64,000 bases of DNA from Escherichia phage Bf23: the sequence record OR083247.1. One strand, given 5' to 3'. Below the pieces are notes generated by a model. It saw only the letters and a list, made by a program, of their open reading frames with translations. It ran no database searches and was not told where the DNA came from. Made by a program: the position numbers and the translations under genes. This document shows, one piece after another, positions 1 to 59,320 of the stretch. Position 1 is the stretch's first letter, and the number at the start of each line of letters is the position of its first letter.

Positions 1-1239
1 TTTGGTCTAGGAACTTCTTGGGAAGCACGTCTAGTACAGAAAGCAATACTGAAAGTACGTATGGATGGCCTAGGCATCAATAAACGTACAGCTATCTTTC
101 CGAAACTGGTGTTTGTTCTGCGTGATGGCGTAAATATGAAGCCAGGAGATGTTAATTATGACATCAAGAAGTTAGCTATGAAATGTACTGCTGAACGTAT
201 GTATCCCGACTATATCAGCTACGATAAGGTTGTGGAAGTTACTGGTGACTATAAAGTTTCTATGGGCTGCCGTTCATTCCTGGCTGCTACAGAGGATGGT
301 GAAACTGCCGGTCGTAATAACTTAGGTGTTGTTTCTGTAAACTTGCCTAGAATTGCTATCGAAGCTGAAGGGAATATTGATCTATTCTTTGATTTGCTTG
401 AGCTACGTGTGGATACAGCGTTAAAAGCATTGGAGTGGAGAGTTGATCGCTTAAAATACATTCAAGCTAAAGCTGCGCCTATCCTCTATATGTCAGGAGC
501 CTTTGGATTACGCTTAGGGCCTGATGAATATGTATTCGATCATTTCTATAACCGTGCTTCTGTATCTCTGGGGTATATTGGTTGCCATGAAATGCTACAG
601 TTCATGTTTGGCAAAGATGTAGATACAATGTCTGAGACCTGCATCAAGTTTGTTCAGCGTGTGCTGCAGTACATGCGGGATAGGGTCGATCAGAAGAAGG
701 AAGAGACTAAGTTAGGTTATAGCCTGTATGCTACACCATCAGAGTCCCTATGTGATCGCTTTTGTCGTCTAGACCGTGAATATTTCCCGGAGCATGAAGA
801 TATTCTGTCCAAAGGATACTACACTAACTCTCACCACCTTGATGTGGAACGTAAAGTTGCTCCTAACGTGAAATTTGATTATGAATCTAACTTTACTCCG
901 ATTGCTTCTGGTGGATGTATCTCTTATGTAGAACTACCAGATATGAAACGATTCCCGGATGCACTGGAATGGGTTATTAATTATGCTGCTAGTAAGGTTC
1001 ATTACTTCGGTATTAATACTCCAGTGGATTCCTGTGGTAAATGTGGATTCTTAGGTGAAACAGTAGCATCCGAAGATGGATTCAAGTGCCCTATCTGTGG
1101 TAATCATGACCCTGAAACTCTTGAAGTAACTCGTCGAGTTTGTGGGTATCTTGGAAATCCAGGTGCTCGTCCGTTTAACCCAGGAAAACAACATGAGGTT
1201 ATGGGCAGGGTGAAACATCAGGATATTCGAGCTAAATAA
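1..1239 (+). CDS. nrdD: Anaerobic (class III) ribonucleoside-triphosphate reductase, C-terminal part; 5' end lies upstream of the window
   Basis: Reading frame is open from base 1 (first ATG at 61 is internal). C-terminal Cys cluster CGKCG..CPICG and glycyl-radical motif RVCGYLG near the C-terminus are typical of NrdD. Confidence 0.85.
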   Translation, partial: FGLGTSWEARLVQKAILKVRMDGLGINKRTAIFPKLVFVLRDGVNMKPGDVNYDIKKLAMKCTAERMYPDYISYDKVVEVTGDYKVSMGCRSFLAATEDGETAGRNNLGVVSVNLPRIAIEAEGNIDLFFDLLELRVDTALKALEWRVDRLKYIQAKAAPILYMSGAFGLRLGPDEYVFDHFYNRASVSLGYIGCHEMLQFMFGKDVDTMSETCIKFVQRVLQYMRDRVDQKKEETKLGYSLYATPSESLCDRFCRLDREYFPEHEDILSKGYYTNSHHLDVERKVAPNVKFDYESNFTPIASGGCISYVELPDMKRFPDALEWVINYAASKVHYFGINTPVDSCGKCGFLGETVASEDGFKCPICGNHDPETLEVTRRVCGYLGNPGARPFNPGKQHEVMGRVKHQDIRAK

Positions 1240-1247
1240 GCTAAACA

Positions 1248-1280
1248 GCCAGGTTGCTAGTCGACCTGGCTTTTATTTTA
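1248..1280 (+). terminator. Rho-independent terminator after nrdD
   Basis: Stem GCCAGGT / ACCTGGC with 9-nt loop followed by TTTTATTTT. Confidence 0.6.
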
Positions 1281-1325
1281 TTTGCTTTCAGCTAAAAATA
1301 TATGTATAATAGATTTATAAATTTG
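1280..1325 (+). promoter_or_regulatory. Strong sigma70 early promoter (T5 early-promoter family)
   Basis: TTGCTT (1282-1287), 17-bp AT-rich spacer, TATAAT (1305-1310), then conserved leader ATAAATTTGAGAGGAG carrying the RBS. Confidence 0.7.
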
Positions 1326-1338
1326 AGAGGAGAAAGAT

Positions 1339-1620
1339 ATGAGCGAATTGCTTCCGAAAGTAGATATTTCTCATCTTGGAGAGCCTAGTGAAGAACGTAA
1401 GGCTCTTGATTGGCTAGGTTACTTTGATTATCGTCGTGTTGTTGCAACATGGAATGATAAGAAAGTTAAGAAGTTTCGGGTACATTATGTAGGTAAAGAC
1501 AAGTGGCTCTGGATTGATTATGAAGAATCGAAGGGGTCTACTAAGGCTGTGAAAATTTATTGTATGTATGGGTATTATTATGCTCACTGTGATAAGAATG
1601 AATTTACAGTACAGAACTAA
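1339..1620 (+). CDS. Hypothetical protein (93 aa)
   Basis: ORF directly downstream of the promoter and RBS; no recognisable motif (no CxxxCxxC, so not NrdG). Confidence 0.5.
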   Translation: MSELLPKVDISHLGEPSEERKALDWLGYFDYRRVVATWNDKKVKKFRVHYVGKDKWLWIDYEESKGSTKAVKIYCMYGYYYAHCDKNEFTVQN

Positions 1621-1629
1621 GGAACAAGA

Positions 1630-1833
1630 ATGAAAAACGTAAAACATCTTAAATATCGCTTAATCTATAATGGACGTATGGAAACTGAAGAGCTAGCTCA
1701 ATTAGCTATTAACTCTAATGAGGTTATGGTGCGTGCGCTAGCAATTGAAAAGTTGCGGGCTTCTTATGAAAGTCGTATTATGGAACTAGAGGAGAAACTT
1801 TATGGCATTCTCGAAGCCGATGCTACCCGATAA
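1630..1833 (+). CDS. Hypothetical protein (67 aa)
   Basis: ORF with RBS AAGGAA upstream, tightly packed in the + strand gene chain. Confidence 0.4.
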   Translation: MKNVKHLKYRLIYNGRMETEELAQLAINSNEVMVRALAIEKLRASYESRIMELEEKLYGILEADATR

Positions 1834-2023
1834 TGGCTTAAATGCTGCGCTGGAAAATGCATTGATGCAGCAGTGGGAGGCTGGATATAAGGATGGGGTT
1901 GAATCTTGTGCGAAAATAATGGATATAATGGCTAATTCTGTAGTTGGGAAAGCCCATCCAGAAGTATCTGATATACTCCATAACCTTAGTAAAAACTTCA
2001 GAGAGCAGGTGAAAAATGCGTAG
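1802..2023 (+). CDS. Hypothetical protein (73 aa)
   Basis: ORF overlapping both neighbours in the + strand chain. Confidence 0.4.
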   Translation: MAFSKPMLPDNGLNAALENALMQQWEAGYKDGVESCAKIMDIMANSVVGKAHPEVSDILHNLSKNFREQVKNA

Positions 2024-2852
2024 ATTAATTATTATTAGTGGTGCAGGTTTGAGTGTTGAAAGTGGTGTACGAGCCTTCCGTACTGATACTGCTAGTGGTA
2101 AAGCATTGTGGGATGATTATGACTTAGAAGAGGTATGTAATATTCATGCCTTTCGTGGTAATTTTTATCATAAAACCCACACGTTTTACAACAAACGTCG
2201 TGAAGAGTTAGAAACTGTTGAACCCAATCTTGCACACCTGCGTATTGGTGAATGGTATAAGAAATATCCGGGTCAAGTAGTAAACTTAACTACCAACGTT
2301 GATGACCTTATTGAGCGTGCTGGCGTTCCACATAGTGACATTCTGCACATTCATGGGTATTTAAAAGAGATTGTTGTAGCTGATAGCTACAATAGTAGCA
2401 ATAAACGAGTTATTGATGTTGGGTATAACTCTATTGACCCAGATGATTATAAATGGGTTAAACCTAATGTAGTCTTCTTCGGAGAACATGCTCCAGCATA
2501 TGCAGAAATGTACAATGTTTTTGATGGTATTACCAGTCAAGATATGATCATTGTGGTTGGTTGCTCTAACCAAGTAATTAACTTCTACTGGGAATTATTC
2601 CCTGTTCTTAATCTGACTGCTGCAAAACTTATGGTAGTTAACTACTACGATAGTGCCTTAGCGGCGGAACCAGGCTATCAAGGTATGACTCGTAGTGATA
2701 TGTACCAACTGGAAGATCGTGGTATTCCTTACTGGAGTAAAGGTGCGGTAGATGCTTTCAGTGACCCTGGTTTTATTGCTCGTGTGGAAGCTCATCTAGA
2801 GGGTAGGCCTTATGTGCCGGAGAGAAGGGGAAACAGATATGTCCATAGTTAA
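2016..2852 (+). CDS. Sir2-family (sirtuin-like) NAD-binding protein without the zinc-ribbon cysteines
   Basis: Sirtuin signature motifs read from the translation: GAGLSVESGVRAFR, TTNVDDLIERAG, HIHG, VVFFGE, VVGCS. No CxxC..CxxC Zn module between HG and VFFGE. Confidence 0.7.
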   Translation: MRRLIIISGAGLSVESGVRAFRTDTASGKALWDDYDLEEVCNIHAFRGNFYHKTHTFYNKRREELETVEPNLAHLRIGEWYKKYPGQVVNLTTNVDDLIERAGVPHSDILHIHGYLKEIVVADSYNSSNKRVIDVGYNSIDPDDYKWVKPNVVFFGEHAPAYAEMYNVFDGITSQDMIIVVGCSNQVINFYWELFPVLNLTAAKLMVVNYYDSALAAEPGYQGMTRSDMYQLEDRGIPYWSKGAVDAFSDPGFIARVEAHLEGRPYVPERRGNRYVHS

Positions 2853-3021
2853 ATCTGTATATACACATCCCGATGATATATTTGTATGGGCGGATGGTAG
2901 TTGGTGCTATCGATGTGAGCTATGGGAAATGGACTATAAATCCGATGACTATGGTGTCATATATGTTGATACAGTTGAGTATGATACGTTCTTAGAAAGG
3001 GACAAAAATGAAAATAAGTAA
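2839..3021 (+). CDS. Hypothetical protein (about 60 aa; start chosen at ATG 2839 after RBS GGGGAAACAG)
   Basis: ORF 2812-3021 in the track; the internal ATG with a better RBS is preferred. Confidence 0.4.
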   Translation: MSIVKSVYTHPDDIFVWADGSWCYRCELWEMDYKSDDYGVIYVDTVEYDTFLERDKNENK

Positions 3022-3514
3022 TACTCCAATTATTTTTCTAGATATTGATGGGGTGCTCAACTCGAGCATCTCCCATCACCATGCACCTGATGATGAAAAG
3101 ATTTTCTTTGGAAGTGACTGGGTCTTTAAACCGCTTCTCAAGGCTTTTCAGGACTTTATTCGTCCTTCTCCAATAATGATTGTTGGGGTATCTTCATGGT
3201 TCTCTGTTAGGAATGAGGTGGAGAACGTTCAGATTATGACCGGATTAGATCTTATCGATCGTTTTCTTGGTACAACGGATTTTACTGGTGGTGGATTATC
3301 TAGAGGTAATTCTGTTCTTCGCTTCGTTGAAAAGCATAAGCTCAAACATTGGTGTGTGCTGGATGACGCTGGTGCTATGATGTACCAGTATCCAACGGTT
3401 ATAGTCAACGGTAGAACTGGAATAAATCTTCAAGATTTAAGAGCTGTTAGCTATATGCTAGAATTTAGCCCAGATCTTGAAATGTGTAAATCCTTACAAC
3501 AATTTAAGGTGTAA
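3008..3514 (+). CDS. HAD-superfamily-like putative phosphatase/hydrolase
   Basis: N-terminal IIFLDIDGVLNS resembles HAD motif I (hhhhDxDGxh). Weak call. Confidence 0.45.
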   Translation: MKISNTPIIFLDIDGVLNSSISHHHAPDDEKIFFGSDWVFKPLLKAFQDFIRPSPIMIVGVSSWFSVRNEVENVQIMTGLDLIDRFLGTTDFTGGGLSRGNSVLRFVEKHKLKHWCVLDDAGAMMYQYPTVIVNGRTGINLQDLRAVSYMLEFSPDLEMCKSLQQFKV

Positions 3515-3516
3515 AT

Positions 3517-3945
3517 ATGTTCAATAATGTATTCTCTAAAGAAGCTAACCCAATTTTGGTTAATTTTTGGCGTACTCTTCCAGCCAACCTGTACAATGAG
3601 GCTATTAATGCTCTGAAAATATGGTGTGAGAATAATGAAATCTCCTTTGCTTTTAAGGGTGAGATTGAAGAAGCTCCCTGTATTGGTTTAATTGTGCAGG
3701 TAGAGGATGGTTTGGAAGAGATTGTCGGCTGGAAAGAGTTGGATGAAATGGGGTTGGTTTTTGCATTAAACTATAAGCTATTTATGCCCAATAAACACCG
3801 TATTGTTGTTAACTATAAAACCAGTGAATCTCCGGGCTTTCAAGTTAATGAACATTACGGTTGGTCTTACTCACCGGAAGAAGTAAATGATGGTATCCAA
3901 AAACTTCGTCGTTTTGGTTATCAAATTCCGGGTTTAACCGCCTAA
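3517..3945 (+). CDS. Hypothetical protein, tandem paralogue A (142 aa)
   Basis: Shares CIG..(E)L(D)..MGL(V/I)(F/V)ALN(Y/F)(K/S)LF(M/H)P and a C-terminal ..(I/Y)(Q/V)(I)PGL block with the next ORF. Confidence 0.55.
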   Translation: MFNNVFSKEANPILVNFWRTLPANLYNEAINALKIWCENNEISFAFKGEIEEAPCIGLIVQVEDGLEEIVGWKELDEMGLVFALNYKLFMPNKHRIVVNYKTSESPGFQVNEHYGWSYSPEEVNDGIQKLRRFGYQIPGLTA

Positions 3946-3954
3946 GGGGGCACA

Positions 3955-4347
3955 ATGGAACAAGTATATTGGCGTCAGATTGATCCTAGTTTGGTGAAGC
4001 GTGCGGAGAAGCTGCTACAACGTTGGTTGGGGGTAAGACAAGCCTCCTTCACTTTTCCGGAGCAGCAAATAGACGATCCCTGTATTGGTGTTTTCCTATC
4101 AGGCTACGCTAGGGAATGGGAATTGGATTGGAATGAGTTGTCTGCTATGGGTTTAATTGTTGCACTAAATTTCTCTTTGTTCCATCCACGTGGTTTGGCC
4201 CTATGTCGTGTGCCTGATGACGGTTGTTCGCCCCATCTTTTACAGGTGGAAGATGATATTTGGGAGTACACTCCAGATATTCTCAAAGAAGCTAAAGAAC
4301 AGTTAAACCATGTTGGGATCTATGTTCCAGGCTTGAATGATGAATGA
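3955..4347 (+). CDS. Hypothetical protein, tandem paralogue B (130 aa)
   Basis: Paralogue of 3517-3945 by eye; RBS AAGGGGG upstream. Confidence 0.55.
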   Translation: MEQVYWRQIDPSLVKRAEKLLQRWLGVRQASFTFPEQQIDDPCIGVFLSGYAREWELDWNELSAMGLIVALNFSLFHPRGLALCRVPDDGCSPHLLQVEDDIWEYTPDILKEAKEQLNHVGIYVPGLNDE

Positions 4348-4370
4348 TTTTTATTAGCTGAACTCTGATT

Positions 4371-4396
4371 ACCGAGTCATTTTGGCTCGGTTTTCT
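4371..4396 (+). terminator. Rho-independent terminator
   Basis: Stem ACCGAGTC / GGCTCGGT (one G-U pair), loop ATTTT, followed by TTTTCTCTGT. Confidence 0.55.
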
Positions 4397-4438
4397 CTGT
4401 GCTTAAAGACACTGATAGCACCTTTGGGAAAAATTTAC

Positions 4439-4480
4439 TTGCATGATGCCCAAAATCTTGATATAATATTTATATTGAAT
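4439..4480 (+). promoter_or_regulatory. sigma70 early promoter with extended -10, followed by an atypically long (about 490 nt) untranslated leader
   Basis: TTGCAT (4439-4444), 17-bp spacer, TGaTATAAT (-10 at 4462-4467), family leader TATTGAATTGAGAGA. Confidence 0.6.
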
Positions 4481-4964
4481 TGAGAGACATTAGTAAAAAT
4501 TGATTTTGCTAATTTTTCTTGTTTACAATCCGCGATACGGAACAGTTAGGCTGCCCCATTAAGGGTTGTTTTAACTATTACTAGTGTTTATATTGCATTA
4601 GTTAATCTTCAATTAAGTGATCTGTGTACCCTGAATTCGGAAAGGTAAATCCAAACCGTGCATATTTAGCTCGTTATATAGGCAGAGTTTTATATGGGGG
4701 TGCGAACGAAAAGAGCAGCGAATGGCGGCACGTACAGTAGTCACCTACCAATAGGATAGTGAGGACAAATAGAATCGGCTTAGCGGCCAATGACCTAGGT
4801 TCTATTCTGTATATGAGCGAAGAGAGCACAGCACTGAGATATGATAACTTATTCATATTGTTTGATGATAATTGATGTTTACGTAAATAGTAGTAATAGT
4901 TGTTCTATTCTTTCTGAATAGTCCTAAAGAAAAGATTTCGATTAACCAACATAGGAGTATTGTT

Positions 4965-7754
4965 GTGTTTTCTATCCTCCAAGGTCACGCCGGGTTTTCT
5001 CGTGATTTAGCAACAGGTATTTGGCGAGAAATCAAAGCGGAAGATTATACCTTTGCCAAGCGATTCTCGAAAGAGCATCCAGAAGGTAAACCAGCTTCTA
5101 TGCCCTTCAAATTTGATGTAATAGAAGAGCACGACCCACAAAGCCTTGCCGAAATGTTACCCCTTATGAGACGTTTAACGTCTGATCCTCATATCGTTGC
5201 GGTACGAGGTCGATGTCTTGCACCTAAAAATAATGTGCGGCGTAAGAAAGGTAACTTTAATGTATCTAATCCTAGTAATATTATTGCTATGGACGTGGAT
5301 GGTATCCTAGATACCGGTGGGTACGACAAATTTAATCTTGTTGGTATGGCTCGCCACATTATTAAGATGTTGAATAGTATTAGTGAGGATATGTTCCCTC
5401 TTGATGCAGGCTTTATAGCTCATGCATCGTCTTCGGCTGGGCTAAAACCAGGTATCCGAATGCACTTAATGCTAGAATCTAATGTCAAGGTAACTCAGGG
5501 TCAGCTAAAGTTCTTATTTACATCTATCAACGATAGTAGTAAGCAAAAATTTGGTTTTGATATTGCCGACCTAGCTTATTATTCATCTGTCCAGCTCCAC
5601 TATTTTGCCGACCCCTTATTTAGCGATGGTATTGTTGATCCGTTTAAAGCGGAGAGTAAGCCACGTCTGGTGTATGTTAAAGGTTCGAAAGTAAATTTGC
5701 CCAATAATCTGGTTGACTATGAAACAACTAGAGGGGAGTTTAAGGAAGAGTTTTATTCCTTACTTGATCAAATTAAAGGCAAAAAGATTGCTTCTGATAA
5801 AGTAGAAGAAACCATCAGCGAGTTAGAAGAGGCTGATGATGGGGTGTATTTGCGTATTATCCCCAAACTATACCATAGAGCATTAGAGGATGGGGTTGAT
5901 TTTGCATGGCTAGAACGTGAGATTAAACCAGCTTTATCTGAATATATTGCAACTAAAGATAACAGTCGTAATATTCAAGATTACTTTAATAACGGTCGTA
6001 AGCAGGCTCTCAAAGCGTTTGTTAATAATTCTAAACGTGAGATTCCATTAAATCTGAAAGGTGTTCCACTTAAGAAATTAGAAGTGGATTCTCCACCAGA
6101 AGTTCCATACCTGAAGATTAACATTGTGCCCCCCAAAGGCCATATAACATTTGTTAAGGCAAGTCTTGGTACTGGTAAAACTACGGCAGTAACTAAATGG
6201 CTGGACGCAGGTGTTCTTCCGGGCAACTTTTTAGCAGTTACAAATACTAGAGCACTGGTATCTTCAAATGCCAAGAAATTTAGTGCAGGACAATACGATA
6301 AGTCTGTAGATATGCTCAACTTTAAACGTGGAGCTATTGATCGTATGTCCACAACTATTCACTCTTTGCATAAGTTCAAAAGTTTTATTGGGCAAATAGA
6401 CACCATTTTTATTGATGAATGTGACGCTGTAATGAATGACCTATTATTCGCCCCTGTTGTTAAACAACGTCGCGAGTGTATTCAAGTTCTACGTGACATC
6501 CTCATGACAGCTAAGACTGTAATCTTATCCGATGGTGATATTAGCGCTGAGACGATTGAAGCATATGGTTCTCTAATTGATTTTGATAAACCAGTAGCAT
6601 TTTATAATCATCACCGTAAAATGCTGTCAAAAGCACACGCTTATGAGTTCCCTGATGAATCCAGTATTTGGGTTGCACTTCAGACTTCTCTAGAGATGGG
6701 TGAGAAATCTATTCTAGTATCTGATTGTGGTCCTGATGAGCTGAATGAGAAGGGTATGGCACTACGTCGTAATACTGGTGCGTTAGTTAAGGAAATCCAT
6801 TCAAACTCTACGTCAGATGTGGATATTCGACGTATTCTGGATTATACAACTAATGAGCTAATTGATCAACAAATTGATTGCTTATTATGTAGCCCATCCG
6901 TAACGAGTGGTGTTGACTTTAACTACTTTGATAACGTATTTGTTATTACTAGAACCAGTAATCAAGCGCCAAACATGCGTTTCCAAGCAATCAGGCGCGA
7001 CCGTGGTGCTCAGAATATCTATTATTTTATTGATAAATCCACTAGTGGGTTCTCCGCAGGTTCTGAACAATATAATATTGATGAAGGTTGGCTGGAGTTA
7101 GCACAGCAATTATACGCACGTCGCAGGGAACTGGAATCCAGGAACTATACTAGTACTTTACGTTATTACTTGCTTGATCAAGGTGCAACTATTGATATTT
7201 TCAGCGAAAGCTGGGGAACTATTGAAGGTGCTGGTAAAGAGTACACAGAAGAGCGAATCAAAGCTATTCTGCATTCAACTCCAGATTATTGTGCTCCACG
7301 TCATGCGGATGCGTATGAAGCTAAACTACTTCTTGTTCGCTATTATCATCTTGAGTCTATTAAAGATGTAACAGTTGAGCATGTTGAACAATATATCAAA
7401 GATAAACCGAATGATCGAGCTGCATTCTTCCATAAGATGCACGAGATGTTTTGGGAAGATATTAAGAAGTGTTCAAACGTCACTATCAAACCATTCATAG
7501 AAGCTCTGAAAGGTAAGAAGAAAGATTTCTTCCTTAAAACAGGTCAGAGTGCTAATGCAAAATATGCTAGAATGTATCTTGGTATGATGGGCATTGGTAA
7601 AGATATGAACACGGAGAATATTGTAGACTGGTATAGAACCTATTGTAAAATCGAGTGTATGCCAATTCCTTATAAGTTCATGACTGACGAGGAAAAACAT
7701 ATGCATGATGAAGCAATGTCAGAGCTAGGTGCTAGAAATGACAGTGAAGAATAA
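4965..7754 (+). CDS. Large P-loop ATPase, putative replication-initiation/origin-binding helicase-like protein (929 aa)
   Basis: GTG start with RBS AGGAG; Walker A SLGTGKTT, Walker B-like FIDECDAV. Function inferred from motifs and its position at the head of the replication module. Confidence 0.55.
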   Translation: MFSILQGHAGFSRDLATGIWREIKAEDYTFAKRFSKEHPEGKPASMPFKFDVIEEHDPQSLAEMLPLMRRLTSDPHIVAVRGRCLAPKNNVRRKKGNFNVSNPSNIIAMDVDGILDTGGYDKFNLVGMARHIIKMLNSISEDMFPLDAGFIAHASSSAGLKPGIRMHLMLESNVKVTQGQLKFLFTSINDSSKQKFGFDIADLAYYSSVQLHYFADPLFSDGIVDPFKAESKPRLVYVKGSKVNLPNNLVDYETTRGEFKEEFYSLLDQIKGKKIASDKVEETISELEEADDGVYLRIIPKLYHRALEDGVDFAWLEREIKPALSEYIATKDNSRNIQDYFNNGRKQALKAFVNNSKREIPLNLKGVPLKKLEVDSPPEVPYLKINIVPPKGHITFVKASLGTGKTTAVTKWLDAGVLPGNFLAVTNTRALVSSNAKKFSAGQYDKSVDMLNFKRGAIDRMSTTIHSLHKFKSFIGQIDTIFIDECDAVMNDLLFAPVVKQRRECIQVLRDILMTAKTVILSDGDISAETIEAYGSLIDFDKPVAFYNHHRKMLSKAHAYEFPDESSIWVALQTSLEMGEKSILVSDCGPDELNEKGMALRRNTGALVKEIHSNSTSDVDIRRILDYTTNELIDQQIDCLLCSPSVTSGVDFNYFDNVFVITRTSNQAPNMRFQAIRRDRGAQNIYYFIDKSTSGFSAGSEQYNIDEGWLELAQQLYARRRELESRNYTSTLRYYLLDQGATIDIFSESWGTIEGAGKEYTEERIKAILHSTPDYCAPRHADAYEAKLLLVRYYHLESIKDVTVEHVEQYIKDKPNDRAAFFHKMHEMFWEDIKKCSNVTIKPFIEALKGKKKDFFLKTGQSANAKYARMYLGMMGIGKDMNTENIVDWYRTYCKIECMPIPYKFMTDEEKHMHDEAMSELGARNDSEE

Positions 7755-26475: not shown

Positions 26476-29400
26476 TTAACTATTTTTCATAGTAGTCAAC
26501 AAGTGCTCTACTACAGTTTTCAAATCTTCCACATCTTTCTCAAGTTTATTAATACGTTCGGTTTTCTCCTCATCCCGTTGTGCTAATACTTTTATAGCAC
26601 ATAGCGCGTCTAGTAAAAGAACGTTATTATCTAGAACGATCCTTTCCTTCGTATCAGTATACCCTTGAACAACCCCATCATCATCAACAATGGGTTCCCC
26701 ACATGGTTCATATGTGTGCTTGACGTATGTAGGATCTATCTCCTCAATCTGTTGAGCAATGACCCCTCTGCGAGTACGTTTTTTCTCATCATCCTTAAAT
26801 ACAAAAGTAACAAGATCCATAGCCTTAATATTTTCTATGGAACGAATACCATCATATTCTTCTATGTTAGTCTTGTAGTTAATGTCAGATGTTCCACTTA
26901 ATGCAAGTGTACCCGCCGCTGTAGGAAAGTTAATGATCCATTGTCCAGTATTGTTAGCATTATTACGACGTGCTACATATAATGCACCATCGGGAGATAC
27001 TTCAAATAAGTTACGTGTACCAACTGTCGCATCACCTTTAGCAGTAGTAGTAATAGCAATGCCACTATATCTTGTAGTAGTTACATCTACAGAACCTTTA
27101 GACGTCCATCCCTGCTCAAACCTAGTATTTAGAGTAAAGTAAGAACTTACCCCCAATTTAAGCTCGTTCTGAGTACGACTATAGTTGAATAGTTCAGCTC
27201 CAGCAGTGCTATCTCTATTAAGTCTAAACCCACCACCATCTGCTACAAACATGTAAGTAGAGTTATCTGCGTCAGACTCCACAAATGATAGCGTTGGATT
27301 ACCAGACTTAAGAGTAAGCGGATTGGCAGCACTACATAGAATATCTCCAAGAAAAGTATTACTTCCTGTGAATCTATTATCCAGCTCTAGCATCGCAGCA
27401 CTTTTCCAAGGAACATCCGTTTTTGAGGTTGTAGGCTGATTAGTTGTTAGAAATCTGCTGTAGAGTCTTCCAGCACCATCAATCCAGCTCTGCATAATGC
27501 GGTTTTCAGCATAACTAGACTGAAAACCACCACCGTTGCTAGGTGCCCAGGAAGGGTCCCCCGCGTTATCACTGATGAAACCATCTCGTGCATCCGTAGG
27601 AATTTTAGGGGCTAATGTAGCAGTAATAAGTTTTAACCATTCACCTACAGTACCCCCTTCAATACTTCTAGCAAAGAATTTTGAGTTACGTCCGGCAAAT
27701 TGGGTTGCGTATGTGCCGCTAAATCCAACATGAAAACCACCATAAGTTATGCTGCTTTCAGGTGTGTTAAGATTCCCGGCAATAGCTTTAAATTTGTTTA
27801 CGCCGTCTGACTGCTGAGCGTTCCAGTCCTGGTCTGAATACGTTCCCAATCCGTTTGGTGGCTGTATAATTCCGTTTGCTTGTACAACCTGGTAAGAGTC
27901 ACCATACTTATTGCGGTATGTATCGCTGCAATAAAATCCTGTTGCACCCGATGTAAAATCAAGTAAATTTCCGTATATACCTAGACCACCGTCAATGCCG
28001 TCACTTGCATCTGAGATACCCCATTTATAAACAGGAGCATCACTTGCAGTTGCTGGCGACCAATCTGCTGTAGGAATGGTGATAGTAGATCCTACTGTTG
28101 CAGCAAGTCTAATTGGGAAAGCGTCACCGCGAACATAGATCGCGTTATGTGGATAGTATGCCTTGTCAGTACCACGCACGCAAAGTATAGCTACCTCACC
28201 AGAATCATAGCAATGGTAGTGCCCAAAAGCTCCCTGACCCATATCAGACCAACCAGCATCACGAATCCACATATGTATCATGTTACAGTTTGGCTCCTGT
28301 GATCCACTAAGAGATCGTGTACGCATTGATACTTCTACAAATGCATCGCCATTCCATCCTGCCGGATGACTAATAATTACTGGGTAATACTTTTTAGCTT
28401 CAGCTCCTGCGGGGGCATTATAGTCATACCAACGAGATAATCCAGTATTAGGAATTAATAGACTATCTTTTGTTTGTTGCAATTTTGCTTTGGGAACGGA
28501 TAGAAGAGCAGCCTGTACATTTGGTAAATCAATCTGGTCATTTTTATAGCTATAACCTATTACGTATTCACCATTATACCCGTCTCCATCTTTTTGTATA
28601 CGCCAGTTACCACCATCAAAAATGAAGTTGTAGTAAGGGGCATTAGCTGGGCGATCAGTTTCATTGAATTGGATCGTAGGATGCTGGCTTGTCAGAGTTA
28701 GTGGGTTACTTACATTAGATCTTAATTCAGCACTAGAACCAATAAATTTTCCATTAGTGGCTACGTTGCCATCTTCGTCCATTCCAAGATACTGATTTTT
28801 ATCGCCAGTTTGTAGATGCAAGGTAGCCCATCCGCGGTTATCTCCTCGAAATTCTGGGTATAAGCGAAGCCTCGTTCTTTGTGTACCGGCACCATTATTT
28901 AGAATGCACTGTAATATACCACCAGCCACCTGATTTGCATCGGAAGATCTTACAAGATTAAGAGCGTAGAATTGTGGAGTACTTGTCCAATCATATGACT
29001 GAAAAATCTTCCACTCGGTCCACTCCCAGCCAGTTGTCGAGGATTGCTTGATATATTGGCGCATATAGAACGAACCATTAATGGAGTTGTAAGGAAAGTA
29101 TAGCTGAGTACCTCCTTGCGGGCCATTAGCGTTATTCTGCATTACAAGAAGTGCACCAGCACTAGTTACAGGGAAGTGGTTCGCCGACGTAGCACCAGCA
29201 TTGGCACCTTGATGATAAAAACCTGCCCTAGTACCATCAAGCGTGTTAAGATCAGTACCATTAAGATCTGCTTTTTGGTCTCTCATTGCATTAAGATTGG
29301 TTAACGCAGAATTATAGTCACGTGCACCAGTACCACCCTGCTCTATTGCTAATGGCTTCCAATTTTGATCAGCTGGACTGTAATATCCCCATCTTCCACT

Positions 29401-30273
29401 AGCATCAAGCTGTAAATAACACCCTGTACTTTTATCGTCAGATGAAAATATAACTGTTCTTTCGCTGGAGCTATGACTGAATCTCGAAACCTCATCTTTA
29501 CGTGCATGACGTGTCCACTGTGGGCCTAGATTGCTTGCCCAACGATAGGTGTATAATGAGCGACTACTCCATCCCTGAAAAATACCAGTATAAGAAGGAG
29601 AGCCATCATTAATAGATATAAAACCTGTTAAGTAGGCTTCTCCCGATGCAATAGAAGGCCACCCAGGCACACCCTCACGAATACGCATAAAACCAATATA
29701 CGCAGAAGGATTACCGGAAATATCCGGGCAATCACGAACTGAATTACCAAGGCCTATAGAAGCTTTCATACCAGAAGCTACATTTTCAGCTTTAGTAGCA
29801 GATGCCGCCGCATTAGTTTCTGAGGTCTTAGCATTGGTTTCTGATGCTTTAGCAGCATTAGCACTGTTAGCAGCAGCAGTTTTACTATTATTAGCATTAG
29901 TTTCTGAAGTTTTAGCAGCCGTCTCACTAGCTTTTGCGTTAGTCTCAGAAGTCTTAGCAGCTTTAGCACTATTAGCAGAAGCAGTAGCAGAAGAAGCAGA
30001 CTGAGTTGCAGACTGCTGGGAAGATGCCGCAGAAATTTCTGCTTCATTCTCAGAATCTTTGGCATTTAGCTCTGACTGTTTTGCATTAATTTCAGATTGT
30101 TTAGCTGCTGCTGCAGAAGTCTTAGAGGATTCTATTGCAGTAGTTAGCTCACCAGCAGTGATAGAACTAATAGAATTAGAAAGCACAACTGTATACTTAG
30201 GATATTTACTTGCAGTTATACTATTCTGGTCCATAGTGACCATTTGCTGTAGAATTATTTTAGTTATAGCCAT
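26476..30273 (-). CDS. ltf: L-shaped tail fibre protein with C-terminal intramolecular-chaperone (peptidase S74-like) domain
   Basis: 1265 aa; low-complexity coiled N-terminal region; C-terminal ..SDINYKTNIEEYDG.. chaperone-type motif; position at the distal end of the tail module. Confidence 0.8.
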   Translation of the reverse strand: MAITKIILQQMVTMDQNSITASKYPKYTVVLSNSISSITAGELTTAIESSKTSAAAAKQSEINAKQSELNAKDSENEAEISAASSQQSATQSASSATASANSAKAAKTSETNAKASETAAKTSETNANNSKTAAANSANAAKASETNAKTSETNAAASATKAENVASGMKASIGLGNSVRDCPDISGNPSAYIGFMRIREGVPGWPSIASGEAYLTGFISINDGSPSYTGIFQGWSSRSLYTYRWASNLGPQWTRHARKDEVSRFSHSSSERTVIFSSDDKSTGCYLQLDASGRWGYYSPADQNWKPLAIEQGGTGARDYNSALTNLNAMRDQKADLNGTDLNTLDGTRAGFYHQGANAGATSANHFPVTSAGALLVMQNNANGPQGGTQLYFPYNSINGSFYMRQYIKQSSTTGWEWTEWKIFQSYDWTSTPQFYALNLVRSSDANQVAGGILQCILNNGAGTQRTRLRLYPEFRGDNRGWATLHLQTGDKNQYLGMDEDGNVATNGKFIGSSAELRSNVSNPLTLTSQHPTIQFNETDRPANAPYYNFIFDGGNWRIQKDGDGYNGEYVIGYSYKNDQIDLPNVQAALLSVPKAKLQQTKDSLLIPNTGLSRWYDYNAPAGAEAKKYYPVIISHPAGWNGDAFVEVSMRTRSLSGSQEPNCNMIHMWIRDAGWSDMGQGAFGHYHCYDSGEVAILCVRGTDKAYYPHNAIYVRGDAFPIRLAATVGSTITIPTADWSPATASDAPVYKWGISDASDGIDGGLGIYGNLLDFTSGATGFYCSDTYRNKYGDSYQVVQANGIIQPPNGLGTYSDQDWNAQQSDGVNKFKAIAGNLNTPESSITYGGFHVGFSGTYATQFAGRNSKFFARSIEGGTVGEWLKLITATLAPKIPTDARDGFISDNAGDPSWAPSNGGGFQSSYAENRIMQSWIDGAGRLYSRFLTTNQPTTSKTDVPWKSAAMLELDNRFTGSNTFLGDILCSAANPLTLKSGNPTLSFVESDADNSTYMFVADGGGFRLNRDSTAGAELFNYSRTQNELKLGVSSYFTLNTRFEQGWTSKGSVDVTTTRYSGIAITTTAKGDATVGTRNLFEVSPDGALYVARRNNANNTGQWIINFPTAAGTLALSGTSDINYKTNIEEYDGIRSIENIKAMDLVTFVFKDDEKKRTRRGVIAQQIEEIDPTYVKHTYEPCGEPIVDDDGVVQGYTDTKERIVLDNNVLLLDALCAIKVLAQRDEEKTERINKLEKDVEDLKTVVEHLLTTMKNS

Positions 30274-30695
30274 TATTGAGTTACTCCATCACTAATATAA
30301 ACCTTGCCTTCCATAATACGGAAAGAACTAGCAGCACTACCAACAGCTGTTCTAGTAATAATTACATCATAGTATCCAGCCAATCTCTGTCTAGGGTTAT
30401 ATCTATCTCTTTCTTTGGATGCTTTGGAAGCAATAGTAGTTACAGCACTAACAGGTAGACTTATAGAGGCTACTCCTTGTGCAGCATCAACAATAGATGT
30501 AGTAAAAGATGCTAAAGTTTCAGCCCCGTCTTCTAAGCTACTTTTAATACTTCCTCTAAGAGAAAAGCCAGTAAGATCTACCGGCTTAGATGTAGCAGGA
30601 TAAACACTATCATCTACATCCATAAATTGCATAAGTAAACCATAAGGTACGTTCTCATCTACTACTAAATCAATAACTCTATTTTCTGTACTCAT
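30273..30695 (-). CDS. Small tail protein, T5 p132-like (collar) candidate (140 aa)
   Basis: Size and position between the tail fibre and pb4-like genes. Confidence 0.5.
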
Positions 30696-55653: not shown

Positions 55654-57318
55654 TTACGCAAAAAATTTACCATTCTTAAAGTCAATCAAGGTGCGCTGAC
55701 CGTTTGCATAGGTAATAACATGCGTTTGTGTCCAGCTTGACGCGCCAACGTTGTAACCCATGTCCAGACTACCAGACACGCCAGCGGTGTATACGCCGCC
55801 GTAAATACTGGCGGTATGAGTGTGCCCCGTGTTCAGTTTACCCAATTTCTTAAATTGCTTCGGATTGCCACGGCTCCCGTTAATGCCATTGTGACCGTGT
55901 ACGCCGCATTCAATGCCTGCAATCTTGAAAGATTGGTCAGTCGTTAGGAAAATGGCGTTAAACTCGCAACCTGCAACCTTGCGCAACGCATAATCTAGCA
56001 CGTTGAAAGTATCGTCTTTTTCTGCAATAGCTCCATAAATCGCGGCATTAAGGCGGTGATATAGTTCGGCGTTGGCTGGATCGTCTTTGATGTTAGCATT
56101 ACGATCATCCAGCCAACGGGATAGCGCCAGATCGTGGTTTGATTCTACGATGATCGTTTGAGAAAAATCGCGCTCCATTGATTCCAACACGCGACCGGTA
56201 TCGATAAGATCATCCAGAACTTTATCACGTCCGGCGGCGTATTGTTTTGCTAGGAATACACCCGAAGCGCGATTGTGATGGTTGCGTGATGTAAAATCAT
56301 GCACGTCATGGACAAATTGATATTTTGGTTTAAGAATATCAAGCAAGCTATTTTCGCCAGCCCATGACGCAGCGGCGCAATCATCATCCAGTTTTTCAGC
56401 GTGGACGTCGCCATATTGTAAACCTAAAACGTGCCCCGTTGTTTCATAGCATCCGGCGGGAGTAGCGCAAACATTCAGATCGTAAAAAACGCCGCTTTCG
56501 TCCATAGTTTCAAGCTGGCGCACAAAAAACTCACCGTCCTCGTCGAACTCGACAACAAGCGCACCGAAATTATGCAACGCTTCCGCTTTCTGTCCTGCTT
56601 TCTGCTGGATGTAGTTTTTTAGCGTTGCCGTGCCGGTTGAATACATACGGCGCACTACTTCACCTTTTAAAGCTGGGACGCTCTCGGCGGTGATTTTAGC
56701 CGCTCCAATTGCCAGACCTTCAAGGTTGAGCGCGGTTGCAGTTTCAGCAAATCCAGAAAGCGGATAATCTGCGGTAGGTAAAACGTTAATTTCAGCCATG
56801 AAAGCAAAGCGGCGATTATTCAAAAACACGTTTTTATTGCAGATATATTTGTCAAATGCGGAATCATATTTGATTCCTTCGGCGCCCTCGCCATTTTGAA
56901 AACCGTTTTTGTTATAAATAAACTTGCTAACCAGCAAATCAGCGCCGATATATTTAGCAAATTGCTCCAGTGAGGCTAAAAAGTTTTTATGCGGGAAAGT
57001 ATTATTCTGAATCGACGTAATAATAAAGCGTTTACCCTGCTTTACTTCCCAGCTTTCAACCGTGCTAGAAACAATCCCCGCCGCTTCTGGGCGCTCATCG
57101 TTTTTAATGGCTTTTGCTACTTTCGCCGCTTTCGGTTTAGCTGGTTTATTTGCTTCCAACCAATCACAAATCGCGGTCGAGTGTTTTGTAGTATCATAGA
57201 CCGCCTTTGATATATCGTCGCAGACTTCCAGTTTAGTGGCGCGCAGACGTTTACCATAGAAATTAAAGTCAGCGGCCATTTTCAGGATAACGGTTTGTTT
57301 TTCTGCGGAAATAATCAT
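55654..57318 (-). CDS. A1: Pre-early protein A1-like (554 aa), putative metallophosphoesterase-type nuclease
   Basis: Size close to that recalled for T5 A1; metallophosphatase-like His clusters (..GVHGHNGINGSRG.., ..GHTHTASIYGG..); neighbours dmp and A2-like genes. Confidence 0.65.
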   Translation of the reverse strand: MIISAEKQTVILKMAADFNFYGKRLRATKLEVCDDISKAVYDTTKHSTAICDWLEANKPAKPKAAKVAKAIKNDERPEAAGIVSSTVESWEVKQGKRFIITSIQNNTFPHKNFLASLEQFAKYIGADLLVSKFIYNKNGFQNGEGAEGIKYDSAFDKYICNKNVFLNNRRFAFMAEINVLPTADYPLSGFAETATALNLEGLAIGAAKITAESVPALKGEVVRRMYSTGTATLKNYIQQKAGQKAEALHNFGALVVEFDEDGEFFVRQLETMDESGVFYDLNVCATPAGCYETTGHVLGLQYGDVHAEKLDDDCAAASWAGENSLLDILKPKYQFVHDVHDFTSRNHHNRASGVFLAKQYAAGRDKVLDDLIDTGRVLESMERDFSQTIIVESNHDLALSRWLDDRNANIKDDPANAELYHRLNAAIYGAIAEKDDTFNVLDYALRKVAGCEFNAIFLTTDQSFKIAGIECGVHGHNGINGSRGNPKQFKKLGKLNTGHTHTASIYGGVYTAGVSGSLDMGYNVGASSWTQTHVITYANGQRTLIDFKNGKFFA

Positions 57319-58867: not shown

Positions 58868-59320
58868 ATCTGCGATTCCTTATATAATTGATAAGTTTAC
58901 CGCCGATAGACTTTAAGATGTACCCAATTTTTAAAGAGCGTGGCGGTAAACTTCCCGCCGTGTAGTTCGTCATTGCCGCCCTACGAGATAAATAATAGGG
59001 GATTCCCAAAAATGGCGCAACCTTATTTTTGTAAAGAAACGTAAAGAAAGCAAATACTCGCAAGGTGTCCGGCGATTGCCCAAGTTTAAAGGAAACGGGC
59101 GCACGAATACCATAAAACCCAGCAGGTTGGCAAGTAATTTTTTCATTTATATTTGCCTTACCCTACTTGACAAAATCTAAAAAGCTCGTGGTAGCGATAA
59201 ACGAGGGTAGGCAATGCAATGGCCTGGCTAAAACTTTCATCGCGTTCTAGGGCGTTTTAGGCGCATTCTAGCCTTGTTGATAACTTATCCCCAGAAGCAA
59301 AAATGAAATTTTCCTAGTTA

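Follow-up and report, generated by a model that had tools for sequence, protein, structure and literature searches.

The stretch analysed here, called the window throughout, comprises 64,000 nucleotides of the genome of Escherichia phage Bf23 (sequence record OR083247.1), and this report concerns a block of genes at positions 2016-4347 that follows nrdD, the C-terminal part of NrdD being encoded at 61-1239. The block opens with a sirtuin homologue, Sir2 (278 amino acids, 2016-2852, PF02146), and continues with a small conserved protein (60 amino acids, 2839-3021, phrog_5116, E 8e-29), a HAD protein of the "Swiss army knife" RNA-repair type (168 amino acids, 3008-3514, PF18143) and two members of the family DUF7415 (PF24187), paralogue A (142 amino acids, 3517-3945) and paralogue B (130 amino acids, 3955-4347), all of them on the plus strand. 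Their orthologues in phage T5 are, in the same order, T5.102, the T5.103/T5.104 family, T5.105, T5.106 and T5.107, and the block as a whole is the counterpart of T5.102-T5.107. A first-pass annotation of this DNA had placed Sir2, the HAD protein and the two paralogues after nrdD, and the list of open reading frames (ORFs) bears out the position of each; the same annotation overlooked the conserved 60-residue gene that lies between Sir2 and HAD. Positions 1300-4900 find matches in 529 phage records, the best full-length ones being T5-like phages that are 92-93% identical, for example NBEco001 (Tequintavirus, Demerecviridae).

The block is part of a larger unit of eight genes (1339-4347), each overlapping the next or lying no more than 9 nt from it, which corresponds to T5.100-T5.107 and takes in three small ORFs 5' of Sir2 (1339-2023) that the first-pass annotation had likewise overlooked. 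A Rho-independent terminator closes nrdD on the plus strand at ~1247-1281 (a 10-bp stem with 6 G-C pairs, then a T-run) and is near-identical to the T5 terminator at 55694-55729. Directly after it an early promoter of the same orientation can be read in the sequence at 1282-1310 (TTGCTT, 17 nt, TG-TATAAT); a simple consensus scan overlooked it because the -35 hexamer fits at only 3 of 6 positions. Positions 1236-1345, around this promoter, align with T5 55682-55792 at 95% identity, and the promoter annotated in T5 ahead of T5.100 (55708-55782) falls inside that T5 segment. At the 3' end lies a second Rho-independent terminator on the plus strand (~4371-4399; 9-bp stem, 5 G-C pairs, T-run), identical to the T5 terminator at 58952-58976. 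Because a terminator and a promoter divide the block from nrdD, and a second terminator stands at its end, we regard it as an early transcription unit of its own.

Sir2 matches PF02146, and no other Pfam family, with an E-value of 5.7e-25 and 88.7 bits (cut-off 24), the match covering 178 of the 180 profile positions. We aligned it with 120 relatives from a collection of 5.8 billion proteins, giving 121 sequences, and used a second set of 50 diverse relatives. Across these alignments the motifs GAGxSxxSG, FR, TTNVDDL, HG, KPxVxFFGE and VGxSN, together with N209, are invariant or nearly so, and G9, A10, G11, S13, F21, R22, N94, D96, H113 and G114 are invariant in the 50 diverse relatives. The Gln of the canonical TQN motif is replaced in the phage protein by Thr93, and Thr is likewise found in 50 of 50 diverse relatives and in at least 95% of the 121 sequences. 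The AlphaFold2 model of the protein has a predicted local distance difference test (pLDDT) score of 88.6. With the NAD (nicotinamide adenine dinucleotide) motifs and His113-Gly114, Asn94 and Asp96 all invariant, and with a confident model, the phage enzyme appears to be catalytically intact.

In canonical sirtuins the segment from the catalytic His to the FGE loop contains the four cysteines of the zinc site. No Cys is present in this segment of the window protein, which does not have a Cys4 zinc ribbon, and the segment contains no Cys in 63 of the 121 sequences, one in 54, two in 4 and four in none. Since all of the aligned sequences are without the full set, the loss of zinc is real and a trait of the lineage. 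The three β-strands of the zinc ribbon are still predicted in the model, at pLDDT 89-96. Both the PF02146 match and the 121-sequence alignment agree with the first-pass annotation, which had described a protein with the core sirtuin motifs and no zinc-ribbon cysteines.

In a sequence search of the PDB the nearest structure is E. coli CobB (1s5p, E 7e-18), followed by Archaeoglobus Sir2, human SIRT5, Sir2Tm and SIRT3, and a Foldseek search with the model agrees with this ranking, CobB again being first (E 1e-17, template modelling score 0.69-0.84); a Sir2 fold is recovered by structure prediction, the check that the first-pass annotation had itself proposed. Only CobB-type models of NCBIfam match the protein, all of them below cut-off (45-102 bits against 221-395, for example 101 against 243), and because these curated models score so far under their cut-offs we do not consider it a CobB equivalog by sequence. 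It shares with CobB and SIRT5 a Rossmann sirtuin fold, the GAG, FR, NxD, HG and FGE motifs, the anion-binding Tyr-x-x-Arg pair and, where CobB has Ala76, a small residue, and it is unlike them in having no zinc cysteines, TTN for TQN, a C-terminal extension of ~60 residues and an identity of 22-25%.

In class III sirtuins (SIRT5/CobB) the carboxylate of a succinylated or malonylated lysine is bound by a Tyr-x-x-Arg pair, which together with a small residue (Ala) opens the pocket for acidic acyl groups. The sequence FYNKRR of the phage protein aligns with FYNARR of CobB, with Tyr58, Arg61 and Arg62 invariant, and its invariant Cys41 aligns with the pocket residue mapped to CobB Ala76. Judged from the alignment, then, the phage Sir2 has the residues of a class III pocket, both the Tyr-x-x-Arg pair and the small residue.

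Defence-associated SIR2 NADases are not known to carry a zinc module either, and from the missing zinc the first-pass annotation had drawn a link between the phage protein and enzymes of this kind. The two do belong to the same Sir2 superfamily, in which the defence enzymes include ThsA, DSR1/2, SIR2-HerA and SIR2-pAgo. Unlike these, the phage Sir2 has no significant match to a defence model in PADLOC, where the only match listed for it is a type I restriction model at E 0.041, which we attribute to chance, and no defence Sir2 is among the top 50 fold matches in Foldseek. None of the sensors or partners of defence SIR2s (SLOG, HerA, pAgo, TIR or the long C-terminus of DSR) is fused to it or adjacent, Sir2 being a single-domain protein of 278 residues. 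We reject a defence-type identity on the PADLOC, Pfam and fold searches, and the argument from zinc fails with it; missing zinc alone is not a marker of a defence-type NADase. Because the protein resembles PF02146 and CobB, matches no defence model and retains a catalytic His as well as the class III pocket residues, its alignments and predicted fold place it in a CobB-like lineage that would have lost its zinc ligands secondarily.

The simplest reading of such a protein, and what databases annotate, is an ordinary NAD-dependent lysine deacylase of the CobB/SIRT5 type, with HAD and DUF7415 functionally separate from it. Such an enzyme would probably prefer acidic groups such as succinyl or malonyl and would, at an early stage of infection, strip acyl marks from host or phage proteins (e.g. 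from ligases, RNA polymerase or metabolic enzymes). It accords with the nearest relatives by sequence and fold (CobB, Archaeoglobus Sir2 and SIRT5) and with the retention of the catalytic His, the FGE loop and the Cys41/Tyr58/Arg61 pocket. It is harder to square with the scores of the curated CobB models, with the replacement of the TQN Gln by Thr, or with the clade-wide absence of a complete set of ligands from the zinc module, the part of a sirtuin that gives the peptide cleft its shape; moreover, E. coli already has CobB, and the gene order of the clade places the sirtuin repeatedly among genes for nucleic-acid end-processing rather than protein modification. A deacylase is a possible and close rival of the reading that we develop below, and on this evidence we hold it to be doubtful.

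The gene block is already known, annotated and interpreted in print. Iyer, Burroughs, Anantharaman and Aravind (2022, Viruses 14:1977, PMC9503650), in a purely computational study, considered the same sirtuin clade together with a "Swiss-army-knife" HAD, citing for the Sir2–HAD pairing a type 3 neighbourhood typified by Escherichia phage SP15, and predicted for it NAD-dependent removal of RNA 2'-phosphates in the manner of KptA/Tpt1. The system of SP15, a T5-like phage, is the same one, with the same Sir2–HAD adjacency and with a HAD and a DUF7415 protein that are 97.6% and 98% identical to those of the window. The statement of the first-pass annotation that no role can be assigned to these proteins is out of date in light of this prediction and of the assignment of HAD to PF18143 and the paralogues to PF24187. 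Sections 3.3.2, 3.7.1 and 3.7.3 of the 2022 paper are silent on the small protein, the DUF7415 pair, T5-like phages without HAD, the class III pocket and the loss of zinc. Apart from that comparative paper, a search of the literature on T5.102, DUF7415 and phage or viral sirtuins found only genome announcements.

The HAD protein, which belongs to the HAD phosphatase superfamily and has its four catalytic motifs, matches PF18143 (HAD_SAK_2, "HAD domain in Swiss Army Knife RNA repair proteins") with an E-value of 2e-20 and 73.9 bits (cut-off 27.5). Its motif I, FLDxDGVLN (D12, D14), and S62, R99 and D119-D120 are invariant, including in relatives at 20-45% identity, and the HAD motif that had been noticed on first inspection is confirmed by the profile and by these catalytic residues. 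Sir2 and this Swiss Army Knife-type HAD belong to one operon and are separated by 155 nt (2852 to 3008), which puts the sirtuin beside an RNA-end enzyme, at least as the HAD family would predict.

The gene neighbourhoods of Sir2 orthologues elsewhere point in the same direction. In phage contigs of ~145 kb an orthologue 61-63% identical to Sir2 lies in a run of overlapping co-directional genes made up of a calcineurin-like phosphoesterase, a T4 Rnl1-type RNA ligase, a cREC cyclic-phosphate domain, a P-loop kinase, a 74-residue ORF, Sir2 itself, an ATP-dependent DNA ligase and a MazG-like protein. In a 608-kb phage, with a homologue that is 36% identical, the order is Rnl1-type RNA ligase, arginase-family protein, 109-residue ORF and Sir2. 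Relatives of HAD are found in comparable company: in Aeromonas phage Ah1 the RnlA gene has a HAD relative on one side and a single-domain DUF7415 protein on the other, the DUF7415 gene coming next after RnlA and two genes lying between HAD and RnlA, and three further viral contigs have RNA ligase and phosphoesterase genes within 2-4 kb of HAD relatives.

Mainly because the RNA-ligase context of Sir2 orthologues recurs, our leading explanation is that the block is an early operon whose enzymes act on phosphorylated ends of RNA, or of other nucleic acids, with the use of NAD+; we put its probability at roughly 0.36. It is supported by the ligase, cREC and kinase genes around close Sir2 orthologues, by the family of the HAD protein and by the anion pocket of the sirtuin, and to these may be added the parallel that we infer between the steps of sirtuin and Tpt1 catalysis.

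In the mechanism that we propose, the sirtuin would bind NAD+ in the manner of CobB, and a phosphate of the substrate, rather than the oxygen of an acyl-lysine, would attack C1'' of the nicotinamide ribose with departure of nicotinamide; the candidate attacking group is a 2'-phosphate at a cleaved or re-ligated RNA site. His113 would then activate the 2''-OH of the ribose, which would displace the RNA, and the class III Tyr58/Arg61 pocket, the carboxylate site in SIRT5/CobB, would hold the anionic phosphate. HAD might either remove a terminal RNA phosphate or dephosphorylate the ADP-ribose-phosphate by-product, and paralogues A and B, each with a double DUF7415, might join the small protein as phage-specific partners, perhaps as adaptors or regulators. 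Chemically, the two steps of the sirtuin would match those of KptA/Tpt1, carried out on a different fold. KptA/Tpt1, which we propose as a functional analogue, likewise uses NAD+ and releases nicotinamide, the phosphate leaving as ADP-ribose cyclic phosphate, and in phage genomes both it and the sirtuins accompany genes for RNA ligases and end healing. Tpt1 is ART-like and the phage Sir2 a Rossmann sirtuin, folds that are unrelated, and the likeness would be one of chemistry and not of homology.

Several observations weigh against RNA-end chemistry. We know of no sirtuin shown so far to act on RNA, and our literature search turned up no experiments on T5.102 or related proteins. The retained FGE peptide-binding loop and acyl-pocket residues are fitted equally well by an ordinary protein deacylase. 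No gene for an RNA ligase, polynucleotide kinase, 2H protein or cREC domain is present in the 64-kb window, where Rnl1, kinase and cREC query sequences found no homologue and which is without the ligase and 5'-kinase that would complete a repair, and none is annotated in T5 between 1 and 80 kb; a T5-like phage would, as a consequence, depend on host ligases. T5 has ~24 tRNA genes, which suggests that cleaved tRNAs are replaced rather than repaired. About 300 Klebsiella T5-like phages have Sir2 and no HAD. The 76 immediate neighbours of distant HAD relatives, classified by Pfam on ~40 viral contigs, are mixed replication and recombination genes with no common theme. Finally, other contexts of Sir2 and DUF7415 lead to nucleotide and NAD metabolism (nrdD, NAMPT, Tmk and a dNTP (deoxynucleoside triphosphate) pyrophosphohydrolase).

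Among these other contexts, those that involve NAD bear on the suggestion of the first-pass annotation that the phage protein manipulates NAD or ADP-ribose metabolism or counters NAD-depletion immunity. A role centred on NAD or ADP-ribose is plausible; for the part about immunity there is one indirect support. Some phages add to the NARP1 pathway of NAD reconstitution a Macro-domain ADP-ribose-1''-phosphate phosphatase, Adpp, in the arrangement NARP1-AP (Adps–Adpp–Namat; Osterman et al. 2026, bioRxiv 10.64898/2026.01.28.702374), and the nearest non-T5 relative of HAD, 38% identical and encoded by Acinetobacter phage ABPH49, overlaps the start of an Adps–Namat (NARP1) pair (record positions 26615-30288, where the pair is annotated as ribose-phosphate pyrophosphokinase and nicotinamide phosphoribosyltransferase). 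In both cases a phosphatase gene stands beside Adps–Namat, and the one in ABPH49 might be viewed as the HAD counterpart of the Macro phosphatase, a suggestive parallel; the published phosphatase is a Macro domain and not a HAD, and the window has neither Adps nor Namat. A scan of IMG/VR with the ABPH49 HAD was empty and tblastn gave only 3 close records, a recurrence too rare for the HAD–NARP1 link to carry weight. About 9 kb from the HAD–Adps–Namat site of ABPH49 there is also a COG3236 (NADAR-like) gene (survey locus L123, 4760-5197).

Extended to the whole block, this alternative would have it manipulate the NAD or ADP-ribose pool against NAD-depleting immunity, the sirtuin acting as an NAD glycohydrolase, as an ADP-ribosyltransferase or, through nicotinamide exchange, in reverse, and HAD dephosphorylating ADP-ribose-1''-phosphate or a related by-product much as Adpp does in NARP1-AP. 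Phages do add a phosphatase to NARP1 against RES-type defence (bioRxiv 10.64898/2026.01.28.702374), and besides the overlap in ABPH49 a homologue 42% identical to Sir2 lies near a NAMPT-family gene in one viral contig of 120 kb. Set against this are the small number of records with the HAD–NARP1 link, the lack of likeness to defence-type NADase Sir2 models, and the retention of the catalytic His, which simple NAD hydrolysis does not need. A phmmer search of the window with Adps and Namat of ABPH49 as queries was empty, a NAMPT gene is likewise absent from the window, and the T5 regions that we read have no annotation for any of the three. For a phage reliant on an NAD-dependent DNA ligase, moreover, an enzyme that burns NAD would be harmful. 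We think this alternative unlikely. The 120-kb contig itself has the order NAMPT-family gene, 78-residue ORF, Sir2 homologue, endonuclease VII and NrdD (locus L059, 6057-11125), and pairs a nicotinamide-releasing enzyme with a nicotinamide-salvaging one.

The two tandem paralogues at the 3' end of the block, for which the first-pass annotation had proposed an alignment, are 30% identical over 124 residues (BLASTP E 2e-18), in agreement with their description as paralogues. Both match PF24187 (A with E 3e-33 and B with E 1e-31; 114 and 109 bits, respectively, for the whole proteins), and when the halves are scored separately (cut-off 27) A gives 65 and 53 bits and B gives 59 and 54 bits. On this Pfam evidence each paralogue consists of two DUF7415 domains; hhalign disagrees, finding between the N-halves and the C-halves of DUF7415 proteins only a 16-column helix match that is not significant (probability 19.5%). 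The AlphaFold2 model of paralogue B has a pLDDT of 92, and no structural relatives of DUF7415 were found outside its own family. Two-domain DUF7415 proteins end in an invariant unstructured C-terminal tail, G-x-x-[IV]-x-G-L, which reads GYQIPGLTA in A (3913-3942) and GIYVPGLNDE in B (4315-4344) and which looks like a docking peptide for a partner.

A word-indexed search for DUF7415 reached Demerecviridae only, and an exhaustive profile search was required for single-domain and fused relatives. It returned 156 representative proteins, mostly single-domain and of 70-160 residues, and a few fusions, to thymidylate kinase (Tmk) and to a dATP/dGTP pyrophosphohydrolase. In Klebsiella phage Mineola, gp067 is a single-domain member of 77 residues whose gene lies between nrdD and nrdG and overlaps both (locus L063, 4980-5213), a placement that hints at a link between DUF7415 and the anaerobic ribonucleotide reductase, and in KP27 a single-domain member lies near a Nudix gene. 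The contexts of DUF7415 are split between RNA ligase and nucleotide metabolism.

It was conceivable on these grounds that HAD and DUF7415, possibly with Sir2 as a regulator, are accessories of dNTP synthesis tied to the anaerobic ribonucleotide reductase, with HAD as a nucleotidase and DUF7415 as a docking module. In every Demerecviridae locus examined the block comes after nrdD, the Mineola gene and the two kinds of DUF7415 fusion fit the proposal, HAD relatives in Aeromonas phages adjoin thymidylate synthase, and nrdD is found two genes away from one of the distant Sir2 homologues. The terminator and the separate promoter that divide nrdD from the block speak against it, as does the location of the Sir2 orthologues of the 145-kb phages, which are not near nrdD; synteny within one family is weak evidence, and T4-like genomes pack unrelated genes together. 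We regard a dNTP role as quite improbable. A distant Sir2 homologue in a 279-kb phage lies beside a nucleoside deoxyribosyltransferase-like gene. The probability not taken up by RNA-end chemistry or by the three alternatives to it falls to roles outside these four readings.

The composition of the block varies among phages. We surveyed 59 viral loci encoding relatives, in which the T5-like order is Sir2, small protein, HAD, DUF7415, DUF7415. Klebsiella phage Roth37 and two further loci (L053 and L054) have nrdD, Sir2, the small protein and two DUF7415 genes and no HAD, and other loci have Sir2, HAD and one DUF7415 gene or Sir2 and one DUF7415 gene. Because the loci without HAD keep the rest, the constant core in Demerecviridae is Sir2, the small protein and DUF7415, with HAD optional. 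The small gene overlaps Sir2 at its 5' end and HAD at its 3' end, in a reading frame that is open from 2812, and its product carries the motif D-x-x-VW-x-DG-[ST]-WCY. The family stands directly 3' of Sir2 in T5-like loci, in Klebsiella T5-like phages without HAD and in two non-T5 loci; it is present as two tandem paralogues in T5 (T5.103 and T5.104) and some relatives, as a single copy in the window, and is missing from four loci.

The three small ORFs at the start of the transcription unit, all on the plus strand, are more variable companions. The first, of 93 residues (1339-1620; phrog_7953, E 4.7e-64), has no Pfam match and is found in about half of the T5-like loci. The second, of 67 residues (1630-1833; phrog_5236, E 3e-45), is present in all T5-type (Markadamsvirinae-like) loci that also have HAD and two DUF7415 genes, and is absent from four more divergent loci (L032, L051, L053 and L054). 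The third, of 73 residues (1802-2023; phrog_5827, E 1.9e-21), overlaps the start of Sir2 and is missing from the annotation of some relatives. No Rfam match falls within 1200-5100, and no tRNA genes were found in the 64-kb window. Beyond the terminator of the block a promoter-like sequence (TTGCAT, 17 nt, TATAAT) at ~4439-4467, annotated as a promoter in T5, is followed by ~500 nt with no convincing ORF and no Rfam match and then, from 4965, by a gene for a 929-residue "replication origin binding" protein; the region 4392-4964 may represent a long leader, a small RNA or origin-related sequence. T5-like phages encode NrdD, and no NrdG activase is annotated nearby in the window or in the T5 record, from which we surmise that these phages rely on a host activase.

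Public labels of these genes are in part wrong and are propagating. The T5 record labels T5.102 "Sir2 (NAD-dependent deacetylase)", and RefSeq gives this same label to the HAD gene by way of phrog_18062; DUF7415 proteins are called "exonuclease", "tail tube protein" or "Phage exonuclease (ACLAME 70)", and one Sir2 is called "tail assembly protein". The RefSeq labels "Sir2", "exonuclease" and "tail tube protein" on the genes neighbouring the sirtuin are wrong.

Beyond the published interpretation, what is new here is the presence, on Pfam evidence, of two DUF7415 domains in each paralogue and a DUF7415 fold with no known structural relative, the persistence of Sir2, the small protein and DUF7415 in Klebsiella T5-like phages that have no HAD, and the adjacency of the nearest non-T5 HAD relative to Adps–Namat. 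A bolder proposal would join these elements: the phage sirtuin would be the first with a nucleic-acid phosphate as its substrate, a Rossmann enzyme convergent with Tpt1/KptA; HAD would handle the by-product, the same HAD lineage having later been recruited beside Adps–Namat in Acinetobacter phages for NAD reconstitution; and the four DUF7415 domains would form a new docking or regulatory module shared with enzymes of nucleotide metabolism. Taken as a whole we consider this rather unlikely.

The phage sirtuin, labelled an NAD-dependent deacetylase for twenty years, belongs to a lineage known from over 500 sequenced genomes of T5-like phages as well as from several other large phage groups. Sirtuins rank with the NAD-consuming enzymes that have been studied most, and to our knowledge all the characterised ones act on proteins, on small molecules or on NAD. 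If the phage enzyme does remove RNA phosphates with NAD, this would be a new class of reaction for sirtuins and a new layer of phage resistance to RNA-cleaving immunity; should it prove a deacylase instead, the phage would be an unusual example of a virus that edits its host's acylome. T5 and its relatives are genetically tractable model and therapy phages.

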